The position numbers were made by a program, and so were the translations under genes. Of a DNA stretch of 47,942 nucleotides, positions 38,603-43,613 are shown piece after piece; position 1 is the stretch's first letter, and each line of letters starts with the position of its first letter. Below the pieces are notes generated by a model. The model saw only the letters and a list, made by a program, of their open reading frames with translations, had not been told where the DNA came from and searched no databases. The DNA is from Sphaeroforma arctica JP610 (taxonomy: Eukaryota), in the NCBI RefSeq assembly GCF_001186125.1, contig NW_014040544.1:110513-158454 (forward strand). Direction: 5' to 3'.

Positions 38603-39214
38603 GTTAGAGTCAACAAGGTACTCGCCTGTACTCTAAGCATATAAATATCCTTGCCACACACAACCACCACTCATTGTTTCATGACGTTCTGTTTCGTATG
38701 TTTATGTCCAAAGTGTTATGCCATGCCTATGTATGTATAGTGTTGGGCTGTGGTATATGTATCGCATCAAGGACATTATATCACACCACCCACGTATCAC
38801 TGGGATGTATTAATGTTATCTCAATGAGATCTTATACTGTATTTTAATTAAGCCTATATGTATAGTCGCTGTAGTATTTGTTATGAATATGTATATACGT
38901 GTGGATATATCTCTGCGATTGTGTTGTAGTATCATCGCCGTTATACTTGACCTATGTGAATGGTACATGATAAATAAGACTTTTGTAATGTTAACTAATA
39001 GCCTATCCTGTATATGTCGTGGAAGTATTGTATTCATGTCTCAAAGTCTACGTAAGTTTGCTTTATTAATAGTAATGTGTGAGTGTGTATCTTCTCGTGC
39101 AGACGTCACTCATGCATGCAGCAAGGACGCAGCCCCGGCCAGACATACCAACAGCCAAGGCCGCTCTAACCTTGGACCAGCCGTCGCTGTCGTCGACTCT
39201 CCCGAGTTTTAATC

Positions 39215-39360
39215 CACTTACGGTATGCAGTCACCACGCTCGGATCATCAAAAGCATCCGCTGTCACCCATGTGGGAGAGCCCTCTAACCAGCGCACCAG
39301 GTACTCCGATTGCTGAGTCGCTTCATAGTGGCGGTGTGATATGATGTGCCGGAATGTCGA
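39215..39360 (-). other. Chromodomain at the integrase C-terminus
   Basis: FRHIISHRHYEATQQSEYLVRWLEGSPTWVTADAFDDPSVVTAY. Confidence 0.8.
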
Positions 39361-40659
39361 TCTCCCTTCTCTCCATAGCAATTCATCTAGCGGTGGCTCC
39401 GTAGCCCGGTGAACTAGCCAAATAATCTCCACATTAACTGGACGGTCTCTGAGTTCCGGTGGTTTGCTGCCATCCTTGTCTCGTAGATGGTAACTCTGAT
39501 TCACACGACTATGAATTACGTATGGGTCCAGCAAGGGCTTCATGGCTTTGGTAGTCGCTCCTTGTGCGAATATCATGACCACGTCACCTGGCTTAAATTC
39601 AAATAAATCAAATTTCCGCATCTGGTCAGTGGCCTCAGCCATAGCATCAGTGTGCTTGATTGTTTTCTGATGAAGTTTTGGCAGAATCGTCTTCTCAAGG
39701 TCACCCAATCGCTTAAGCGATGGATTATTCGTTATCGGAATATGATCAGGTAAGTCATCAGTCATGTCTGCAAATGGAACATGGCGGCGCCCAAAGTAAA
39801 CACTAAATGGTGCTGACATGTGTCAACGTGATATCCGGAGGTTCTGGTAAAGCATAGTAAAAGGTAAGCGTTCATCCCACAATTCCGGACAGCCAACACA
39901 AAGCGCGCGCACACATTTGTGAATTTCTTTATGTCGGCGCTCTGCCGTACCGAATGTTTGAGGATGGTATGGTTGAGATGTCTTGTGTATAATTCCGAGT
40001 GCTCGTGTTATAGACCTGACAATGTTGTTGGCAAATTCAGTCCCCTCATCACTCTGAATTTTCCGAGGAAAGCCATGCTCATCAAATACCGATACTAACC
40101 CTGTCACTACCGTGTTGGCATCTTTTGCAGGCAGCGCCCGTAAGATAGAGTAGACGGATGCCACATCCATGACATGTAGAATAAACTTGTTGCCTTTAGT
40201 AAATGTTACTGCCATCGGAATGAGATCCATTTGAATGTGATCCCGTGGATAACGTGCCGTAATGCTCATTAAAGGATGAAATCCTTTCTTCATAGTATCA
40301 TTATCTAAACATGTGCGACATAATTTACGGACCTCTTCCGTGATTGGAAGCATTTGGTCTCAATTGTGTCCATCGTCTCGCATCTGTTGCACTGTGACCG
40401 CTGGAGCAAGATGTCCTTGTTCATGAAACTGCCAGGTAAGCTGTACCCGTCGATTAGCTTCTTCATGTCCAGGATGATTGATCACCGTCGCCCCTGCACA
40501 AATCTCAGGCACCTGTTCCGCAATCTGTCGTGTCCGTTTGGTCATGGCTGGTTGCGCCCACGTCTCTTGACAACGATCCTTAGCTTCCTCACACACAGGT
40601 ACTTCGAGACCCAAGTTACACCAGAATGATGAAAAAACTTTATAACCCGATGGAGGGCC

Positions 40660-41055
40660 AATACGTACCACCACTGTATGTTCCCATGGATACTTACCAC
40701 ATGCCTGTGTGCCATGCTTCAAGAATGTATGGGCTCTACGCGGGATCAGCAATGAATCTGCTTGCATCATCGATAGAAGCAGAGGGAACCATGACACCCG
40801 AGTGTTCAACGGGAGACACACTGTCGCGGACGGCTTGTCCGCCGATACTTTACGAAGTACCTAATGAATAAGGTGCCATGGCGGATTCATCCATGCATTG
40901 TACTGGCACCAGTCAAATTTAAAAGCGCCTCCGTCTTTATCATATGCCCAGTATTGTCGTAGCTGAGCGTTGTGCCTTGATGCAAAGGCGTCAACGTCGT
41001 TAGGTCCGAAGTGTTTTTGAACCTGATCAAAGAAATCGGGATACAACTTCCAGCA
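40660..41055 (-). pseudogene. Dam-like DNA N6-adenine methyltransferase domain within pol of element B
   Basis: WKLYPDFFDQVQKHFGPNDVDAFASRHNAQLRQYW...AFKFDW...WMNPPWHLIH*VLRKV...ATVCLP...SWFPLL; DAFAS at ~40992 and NPPW at 40887-40876; same frame as RNase H and integrase. Confidence 0.85.
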
Positions 41056-43613
41056 TGATGTGTAGAAGATAGCGGGAAAGTTGATGTCCGCCGTCCCCTC
41101 ATGAACCCGGCTTCACATGTCTGGTAATTTATTCAGTTCACCTGGGACATGTGTTATCATGAAATTGAATTGCGCAATGATGTGATGCCATCGTTGCAGC
41201 ATGCTGTTCAATTTCAGTTGGGTGTTCATGTAAATCAGTGCTTTGTGGTCCGTGTGCACAGTAAAGCGCTGCCCTATTAAATGATTATGGAAGTGGACCA
41301 ATGCATATGTAAGCGCTGACGATTCCTTCATTGGAGTCGTGTATGTCTGCTGCGCCTTGTTGAGTCTTCGAAAAGAACATCAGGTAGTGCTTGCGGCCGT
41401 CAATTAGCTGAAATAATGCACCTCCGATACCATAATCACCGGCATCAGTCTCGAATTCGAGTGGAACCCCATCAACCGGAATGTTTAACCGTACCGCAGA
41501 CACGATCGCTTCTTTCATCTGATCCCATGCCAATTGATGTTCTAGTTTCCAACGATCCCCAATCGGTTCCTTTGGCTTGAGTTTCGAGAACGATCGTAGT
41601 GTGGCCATTTTATGTGCAAAGTTAGGTAAGTGCTCATGTAGAAAGTCCGCCAACCCCAATGCAGATGCCATGTCCCTTGACATCGCGGCACTGGCCAGTC
41701 GATCAACCGTTGTTGCTTTTCATGATCAACGCCAATTCCTTTCGCAGAAACTTTCTTTCCCAGAACCAGGACCTCGCTTACTGCAAAGTGACACCTCTTC
41801 TGGTTAAGCTTGAAGTTGTTCTTGGTAAGCCGTCGGATGACCTCCTCCACGGTTGCAATATGTTCCTTGTAGTTATCAGATGTAATTATAAGGTCATTGA
41901 CGTAGCGCTGCACGTCTAAACGCATCATCAGATTACTGATTGTGCGCTGGAATTGAGATGTGAATGTCGACAATCCGAATGGAGCCGAAGTGAAGGAGTA
42001 TTGGTGACTGTCCCAAGTAAACGAGAACATATGTTGTGAGTCCTCGTGTACTGGAAGGCGATGATATGCAGCCGATAAATCTAACGTGGTATAATATCGC
42101 TTGCCTCTTAAGTTACTAATAATCTCATTGACCTTCGGTAACGTAAACTGGTCTCTCGAAATAAGGGCGTTGATCTGTTGCAGATCCAAACACACCCGAA
42201 CCTTAATGAGTTCCCCCGATGGTGTAAATGTGGGTGCTGCTAGTAAAGGCAGGTTGACCACTGACGCTGACGTACGACGTTTGGTCACCAGCTCATGTTC
42301 CCATTTATGTACCTGTTGCGTGACGTGTGGTTTGTACTTGTCTGACACAGAGTTTTGTGTTTGTCGTCGAAGGCCCAAAGTTTATCTCGAGGTATGGGAA
42401 GGGATACTTCACTGCCTGGAAGAGTATATCGAGCCGCATCCAAAATGGTCTCGTTAGCATCTAAGTACTGGCGTACTCGTTGCCGTATATCCTCAGGTTC
42501 CGACAAGTATGGTGCCATGCGAATGTCGATCGGTTCAAGTAGCTCATCCACATTCCGATTGATTTCTGGAAACGGGGAGTTGATAGTCCAATAAGACCTA
42601 AGCTCAATTCGCCCATAATACCCATTCCCAGAATTACATCAATATTATCGGGTAAATTCATAAGTTCAAACATACAACCTGCAGCAGACTTTGTACCATA
42701 TTGAACCGTCGTGGCGTGTGTCTTGCCGAGGCGCGGAGTGCGGAAAGCTTTGTCCGCCAAGTATATGTAACTATCCTTAGCTGGTGGTGTAATAGATAGT
42801 TGCGCCTTTGCTGCGGATGCCTGAGTAATAACGGAACGGTTCACCCCCGTATCAATGAGTGTGCGCATCGCATGTCCGTTGACTTGTAACGTAACATATA
42901 CACGGTTGTCAGTAGGGAACACTTTATCTTTTACTGCAAATATTCTTGTTGCCGTTTTTAGGCCCAACATCTCAATTTGAGCTTGGCTCCTCTTCCCAAT
43001 CGGCTGGCCCTTGCCTGGCCTCCATCAACTCATCTTCACTGTTGACATACGACTCGTCGACCAAATCATGAATATGCATCACCTCACTCTCTCCTACCTC
43101 AGCTGGCGTCGGATCAGGCATATGATCACCCCCATCCACGAGATTAACTCGAGGGCGGAATGTATTACCCGGTGCCTGTTGTGTGCGCGTGGATGTTCCC
43201 CTTGCGTATGGCGGCCCGTGTTAGTTGATGTCGGTGCTCGCAGTAACTTAGGGCAACGTGGTGCGTGTGCTGGGCCAGGAGAGAGATTCTGTTTACATGA
43301 CCGACAACGGCATGCGGATTAGGCTCGTGTGTTGGCTTCCACACGCGCTCGTGTGCGTGAACGTGAACCCCCGAGGATTTGTAGCGGTCGGGAAAGATTT
43401 GCTCGACGGTGTTCTTCCGCCTTGTCAATATTCACCCGAAATACATCACGCATTTGTGCCGCAGAATATTCTCGCCAGTTAGGGTGCATACGAAGAGTAT
43501 CACGCAGCTTGATTGATGAGATTGAACATACCATGGTTGCGGTATACTTATAGCGGATTCACATACTGTCGCATCTCCATAAAGTCTACTTTGCGTTTAA
43601 AATCCCGAAATTT

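Follow-up and report, generated by a model that had tools for sequence, protein, structure and literature searches.

We analysed a stretch of 47,942 nucleotides (the window) from Sphaeroforma arctica JP610, a single-celled ichthyosporean and relative of animals (contig NW_014040544.1, positions 110,513 to 158,454 of the forward strand). On its minus strand lies a dead, decayed copy of a multi-copy Ty3/gypsy retrotransposon, which makes no protein and whose pol region carries a Dam-like N6-adenine methyltransferase domain between RNase H and integrase. The parts of this long terminal repeat (LTR) element, and the nuclear mitochondrial fragment (NUMT) on which it ends, are listed below in window positions.

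43140..43613, minus strand: gag remnant with its 5' end cut (by-eye translation; sister contigs cover the region)
42614..42895, minus strand: aspartic protease, LIDTG at 42845-42859 (Pfam gag-asp_proteas, E 4.7e-10)
41755..42192, minus strand: reverse transcriptase (RT) core (Pfam RVT_1, E 1.9e-20)
41113..41551, minus strand: Ty3-type RNase H with a frameshift near 41361 (RT_RNaseH_2, E 1.8e-12; RT_RNaseH, E 9.1e-16)
40660..41055, minus strand: Dam-like N6-adenine methyltransferase domain with one stop at 40861-40863 (profiles; alignment with 13 relatives)
40309..40425, minus strand: integrase H2C2 zinc finger, HEQGH at 40411-40425 and CRTC at 40309-40320 (Pfam Integrase_H2C2, E 0.019, under the cut-off)
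39934..40248, minus strand: DDE integrase core (Pfam rve, E 1e-13)
39199..39357, minus strand: divergent chromodomain at the integrase C-terminus (profile, Atlas and alignment)
39037..39153, minus strand: candidate 3' LTR of 117 bases, TG...CA, with AATAAA at 39062-39067 (not confirmed; a partner is absent from the window)
43614..43808, plus strand: 3' fragment of mitochondrial atp6 (NUMT), not part of the element (Pfam ATP-synt_A, E 2e-9; open under table 4)

From 41379 to 39169 the minus strand reads as one frame of 737 codons, interrupted by four single stops (41113-41115, 40861-40863, 40360-40362 and 39823-39825) that were read through with X. A preliminary description of this DNA had seen five open reading frame pieces in one frame broken by single stop codons, and this is confirmed with exactly four stops. 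The read-through frame runs from the end of RNase H through the Dam-like methyltransferase, the zinc finger and the DDE integrase to a chromodomain-like tail; Pfam recovered RNase H, Dam (PF05869, E 6.5e-9, above its cut-off) and rve in this sequence, bearing out the in-frame position first proposed for the Dam-like domain. The aspartic protease, the Ty3-like RT and the first half of RNase H lie 5' of the frame, and from protease to RNase H the window copy changes frame four times. Protease, RT, RNase H (PF17917/PF17919) and rve passed their Pfam cut-offs, so that the protease and DDE integrase stand as described. For the H2C2 finger and the chromodomain, motifs and other tests agreed with the description, while their Pfam matches (Chromo at E 0.026) stayed under the cut-offs.

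The order of protease, RT, RNase H and integrase, together with an RT and RNase H of Ty3/gypsy type, identifies the element as Ty3/gypsy. Its RT had the Ty3 RT as top PDB match (E 2.4e-25) and its integrase Ty3 Gag-Pol (E 1.6e-18). The integrase D-D(35)E signature is intact (QMDL 40222-40233, SDEG 40042-40053, AERR 39934-39945), and the RT reads YVND where YxDD is expected. RNase H ends on NKLPDM at 41116-41130, and its frameshift near 41361 appears as indel rows in the comparison with sister contigs. The gag remnant gave no Pfam match; by eye it holds a Cys/His knuckle-like motif (CRSC 43295-43306, HAPRC 43253-43267). The 5' LTR is gone, because the element stops at 43613, against the mitochondrial atp6 fragment. 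This fragment, in which TGA is read as Trp, is joined directly to the truncated 5' end and followed by GC-rich short repeats; contig depth is very high from 43726 to about 44130. A search for an LTR pair in the window found none, and family contig cover drops between 39100 and 38900. A cytosine DNA methyltransferase, by which an EpiLTR would be recognised, was matched neither in pol nor in six frames of both flanks nor on the plus strand of the element. A study on cytosine methyltransferases in retrotransposons reportedly exists.

Taken alone, the Dam stretch matched PF05869 at E 6.2e-10 (39.4 bits, the cut-off being 28.1), PHROG 111 (DNA methyltransferase) at E 8e-9 and TIGR01712 at E 3.5e-6, far under the equivalog cut-off of the last. 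A tblastn search with the domain returned eight phage records, each of which carries an annotation as DNA or N6-adenine methyltransferase. With the enzyme of Edwardsiella phage eiAU the domain shares 28% identity over 120 aa, EIDAAAA lying opposite DVDAFAS and NPPY opposite NPPW. Motif order and the NPP motif are thus common to the window domain and the phage Dam-like enzymes (PF05869, TIGR01712), but the phage genes are free-standing whereas the window domain sits inside a polyprotein. Its motifs are WKLYPD (41035-41052), DVDAFAS (40978-40998), which we take from the family to be the S-adenosylmethionine-binding motif, and an intact NPPW (40876-40887); the copy had been called dead with NPPW preserved, and so it is. 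Word-based protein searches and a PDB sequence search with the Dam region gave no match. Single-sequence folds were poor (predicted local distance difference test scores of 57.5 for the tail and 49.7 for Dam), and the fold searches made with them are uninformative, evidence neither way. A locus search found none in viral contigs; two metagenome loci that it returned proved spurious on inspection.

The relatives of the element were taken from a full HMMER search, from which the best 150 matches were kept. A Dam-like stretch of at least 25 bits was present in 24 of these, and Pfam, run on 28 of the 150, confirmed the order protease-RT-RNase H-Dam-integrase in the best relatives. The top match, P0124, is an open polyprotein of 1288 aa (protease, RT, RNase H, Dam, H2C2 and rve) that is colinear with the window at 34% identity over 1095 residues; the second is Awhi_evm2s11263 of Abeoforma whisleri. 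Trees were built from 56 of the 107 matches having both RT and integrase, namely every one of the 16 with Dam and the best 40 of those without. They were quick trees with the Shimodaira-Hasegawa-like approximate likelihood ratio test (SH-aLRT) as their only support and with neither DIRS nor named chromovirus references. In the RT tree the window fell in a nine-row clade (SH-aLRT 99), composed of integrase-bearing pols, the other rows being seven proteins with Dam and the second gypsy element of the window; in the integrase tree (SH-aLRT 96) it grouped with the same seven. All seven clade members keep both YxDD and NPP[W/F]. As the two trees yield the same Dam-bearing clade, RT, Dam and integrase share a common descent. 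P0124, P0125 and five more intact polyproteins with YxDD and NPP offer better material for activity and substrate studies than isolated Dam domains.

A separate observation concerns the Dam tree, in which a supported clade (98/97) unites P0126, P0130, P0132, P0136, P0138, P0140, P0141, P0152, P0153, P0168, P0258 and P0260. These are metagenome pols whose RT and integrase are spread over several other gypsy branches; many have canonical chromodomains, and several are without the NPP motif. This distribution hints at further Dam transfers between gypsy lineages and at motif loss.

Within S. arctica, part of the stretch was present in 20 of the 24 listed sequencing runs, none of them an RNA run, which carries no weight on expression, and contigs covered all 30 bins in each of the four runs examined. 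In run X1 the Dam bins stood at 13081, 17403 and 12063, inside the span of 8012-35467 set by the remaining element bins, contig depth not being taken as copy number. Variant letters at one place were carried by up to 24 contigs. The window's Dam stop (row 40863) and its altered YxDD codon (row 41898) are each absent from most sister contigs, which indicates that these lesions are private to the window copy; at least 10 variant rows over 40409-40942 are likewise nearly all private to it. The junction between the end of Dam and the zinc finger was bridged by an 83%-identical contig of run X1, and SARC_02989, on another S. arctica contig, matches the RNase H end/Dam start at 76% and the Dam end/zinc finger at 67%.

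These data bear on whether the Dam stretch might be a piece of a DIRS element that happened to land in an ordinary gypsy copy, or a product of chimeric assembly. DIRS elements do carry a Dam domain (PF05869) directly after RNase H in pol, the trees hold no DIRS sequences, and the RNase H-Dam junction was bridged by none of the contigs listed. However, DIRS, as described in the available part of PMC3783388, have neither aspartic protease nor DDE integrase and possess a tyrosine recombinase and inverted repeats. In the window element, protease and DDE integrase are both present, and neither a six-frame search of 36960-39202 and 43600-47942 nor a search of the element's plus strand gave a tyrosine recombinase. 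Moreover, both junctions are in-frame, contig cover is even, SARC_02989 holds both junction regions, and intact relatives are colinear. The open protease-RT-RNase H-Dam-integrase polyproteins, in one clade by RT and by integrase, contradict a nested or chimeric origin, which we consider highly improbable. The Dam domain is a family trait, not a nested DIRS fragment. None of three adverse outcomes anticipated in the preliminary description occurred: an N6-adenine methyltransferase profile did match (PF05869), the domain is no one-off since relatives and sister copies carry it, and the integrase does not come from a separate element, as both trees return the same seven proteins.

This architecture is not new, although it had seemed that it might be: Fernandez-Moreno et al. 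(bioRxiv 10.64898/2026.05.21.726589, May 2026) have described such elements, in S. arctica too, as DAM-LTRs. The preprint reports five lineages, the ichthyosporean one occurring in Pirum, Abeoforma and S. arctica; domains were called at E 1e-5, and this lineage is said to lack chromodomains. The window element has PF05869 under that E value (6.5e-9) in an LTR-type pol, with an NPP triplet followed by an aromatic residue (NPPW). It shares with the ichthyosporean lineage its host, a gypsy RT, a DDE integrase and a Dam domain with the NPP motif, and it groups with the A. whisleri polyprotein from EukProt, so that it likely belongs there, judging by host and sequence likeness. It differs in its chromodomain, which is divergent, selected and below the Pfam cut-off, both in the window copy and in the Abeoforma protein. 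Dam and chromodomain also occur together in the integrase-type LTR elements of a Chlorophyta DAM-chromovirus-like clade of the same preprint; compared by description, that clade differs in its green-algal hosts, in a separate capture and in chromodomains that were recognised as such. A literature search, outside which most subscription papers lay, yielded no further publication about gypsy elements with adenine methyltransferases and no report of a chromodomain in S. arctica DAM-LTRs; the available parts of PMC4007536 and PMC12695648 hold nothing on S. arctica elements. What we add is solely a divergent chromodomain, under selection, in a lineage to which the preprint's main text denies chromodomains.

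The top PDB sequence matches of the C-terminal tail, which contains EYLVRW at 39289-39306, were cpSRP43 chromodomains (E 0.025 and 0.005); in one PDB search five of seven matches were cpSRP43 and one an unrelated lectin. In the Atlas, 27 of its 30 matches were Chromo clusters (0.93, 193 shared features). A profile was built from nine Pfam-positive chromodomains among the HMMER matches, mildly circular as its seeds are matches to the query. Its scores were 27.0 bits for the tail in the window and 34.7 for that of the Abeoforma protein, and none of 2000 shuffles came up to either; P0124 scored 14.2 bits (0/2000 shuffles) and P0127 gave no match. The sister fragment SARC_14605 is named 'Chromo domain-containing protein' in UniRef, and a Pfam scan of it gave nothing.

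The variation among copies was assessed over 39166-39400 in the 40 best-supported of 53 variant rows. Among other copies there were 32 variants, 24 of them at third positions and 23 synonymous, against 27% expected (binomial p about 2e-7, the copies not being independent). Only three of the eight variants near-fixed against the window copy were synonymous. This pattern indicates a tail kept as protein in the family and decaying in the window copy; the chromodomain is under purifying selection in the family. It sits at the integrase C-terminus, as in chromoviruses, and its presence in the window copy as well as in the protein of A. whisleri does not fit a lineage devoid of chromodomains. We infer that its absence from the preprint is a miss at the detection threshold and does not mark a separate lineage.

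The chromodomain retains the second cage Trp in the alignment. At the position of the first cage aromatic, the window, SARC_14605 and P0124 have Ser and the Abeoforma protein has an aromatic residue; in seven proteins of the window's group, three to four residues are missing from the loop that holds the third. Of the Group I (HP1-like) residues Y24, W45 and Y48, the Trp alone is therefore left, and with the first and third aromatics absent the targeting of a plain chromovirus, as first envisaged, is not upheld. The available part of PMC3350952 describes the same state, W45 kept and Y24 and Y48 absent, for group II chromodomains of plant chromoviruses. Since it reports these from plants only and the window's loop is shortened, convergence is the likelier source of the resemblance. 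Because the chromodomain resembles this cage-less group, HP1-like reading of methylated H3K9 appears unlikely from its residues; our literature search found no usable statement on H3K9me3 in Sphaeroforma.

The preprint finds that, in S. arctica and A. whisleri, insertions of DAM-LTRs exceed other LTR elements in expression and in how often they are marked with N6-methyladenine (6mA); it also reports that this 6mA enrichment is independent of insertion length or age, and that DAM-LTRs are biased to hosts encoding AMT1. Genomic 5-methylcytosine is absent from S. arctica, as stated in the available part of PMC11244446. That the window element is a dead DAM-LTR of ichthyosporean type is close to certain; its mechanism is less so. 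With modest confidence, we favour the reading that a methyltransferase packaged within Pol places its mark in cis on newly made element DNA and that the host later maintains this mark. Pol would be packaged and cleaved in the particle, supplying the methyltransferase one-to-one with RT and integrase, and the enzyme, acting in cis, would place N6-methyladenine on the cDNA or its RNA-DNA precursor. After integration, in the preprint's model of a marked RNA-DNA intermediate followed by AMT1 maintenance, host AMT1 would maintain 6mA and the new copy would stay in transcription-permissive chromatin. The chromodomain, without two cage aromatics, may steer the integration complex via a ligand other than that of a canonical methyl-lysine cage.

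Several points weigh against this reading. The 6mA enrichment of DAM-LTR insertions is a correlation, and expression in E. coli gave no 6mA gain (10.64898/2026.05.21.726589). The earlier suggestion, in which the element would imitate active chromatin by writing 6mA on the cDNA it makes, agrees with the preprint's model and shares both of these weaknesses. The assignment to the preprint's lineage follows from the host and the Abeoforma whisleri EukProt sister, and the RT and integrase trees are quick ones. In a careful Dam tree of 25 rows the window fell in no starred set. NPP[W/F/Y] is absent in 9 of the 24 Dam-bearing matches, one of them a fragment with a deletion; the fold can thus be retained where the textbook motif is not. 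Finally, in three runs there is one contig each from which 39995-41364 is missing, and with it Dam; these contigs also lose parts of RNase H and integrase.

Functional evidence for DAM-LTRs consists of the 6mA enrichment alone, and a targeting domain opens a second route to such a pattern: by biasing insertion sites, the chromodomain could confound it. As the chief alternative, the mark might come from the landing site, chromodomain and integrase targeting gene-proximal, AMT1-marked chromatin while Dam protects particle cDNA or binds nucleic acid. A selected chromodomain-like tail that the preprint did not count, the negative E. coli assay and the presence of host genes in the same window as this copy would fit such an origin. 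We nevertheless regard it as possible and not likely, in view of NPP[W/F] in all seven clade members, an enrichment reported regardless of length or age, and a chromodomain that has no known ligand.

Marking of new DNA in cis, the reading we prefer, must also be set against a Dam-like domain that methylates RNA (genomic or hybrid strand), or that is a non-catalytic appendage of RT-RNase H inherited from DIRS, with no role in host chromatin. Among annotated homologues, phage DNA N6-adenine methyltransferases come closest; this, the bias of DAM-LTRs to AMT1-encoding hosts and their greater 6mA speak against it. The missing DNA 6mA gain in E. coli is what it would predict, DIRS keep the domain after RNase H even in lineages without 6mA, nine of 24 matches do without NPP[W/F/Y], and the domain of one relative gave a weak PCIF1-family match (E 0.008). 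Overall, such a role seems distinctly unlikely.

A further reading takes in the chromodomain: ichthyosporean DAM-LTRs might pair a 6mA writer with an overlooked cage-less chromodomain, kept by purifying selection, that reads active, not silent, chromatin. We regard this pairing as unlikely, if somewhat less so than an RNA or structural role of Dam. If true, the element would both land in and write a permissive state. Such a module of writer and reader would work in the reverse sense to heterochromatin-seeking chromoviruses and would have escaped the preprint's description.

The remainder of the window holds further mobile-element remains and host sequence. The second decayed gypsy copy (31838-35416, minus strand) comprises gag, protease and RT, with no Dam or integrase. 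It is 61% identical over 451 aa to the Dam-bearing P0127 of the same RT clade and breaks early in RNase H, at about 32770, after which an unrelated coiled-coil-like frame follows. Its flanks are 176-nt inverted repeats of 76% identity (31838-32013, 35241-35416), not direct LTRs. A broken reverse transcriptase like those of non-LTR long interspersed nuclear elements lies at 26078-27100 (plus strand; Pfam RVT_1, E 5.5e-11). Frames resembling, by eye, a transposase Cys-rich tail and YqaJ-like exonuclease pieces lie at 28615-30002 (minus strand) and at 14220-14627 and 17333-19249 (plus strand); they gave no significant Pfam match (YqaJ, E 0.14). A decayed fragment at about 45700-46300 (plus strand) looks by eye like a P-type (flippase) ATPase and had no Pfam match at E 0.05. 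No tRNA was found in the window. The host gene PFK (6-phosphofructokinase) occupies 2256-11830 (plus strand) with microsatellite-rich introns; six internal exons are 100% identical to S. arctica SARC_00462, lower values reflecting matches that overrun exon edges. Taken alone, this identity would assign the window to S. arctica or to something very closely akin. The segment 28078-28220 is repeated in inverted orientation at 47541-47683 with 98% identity.

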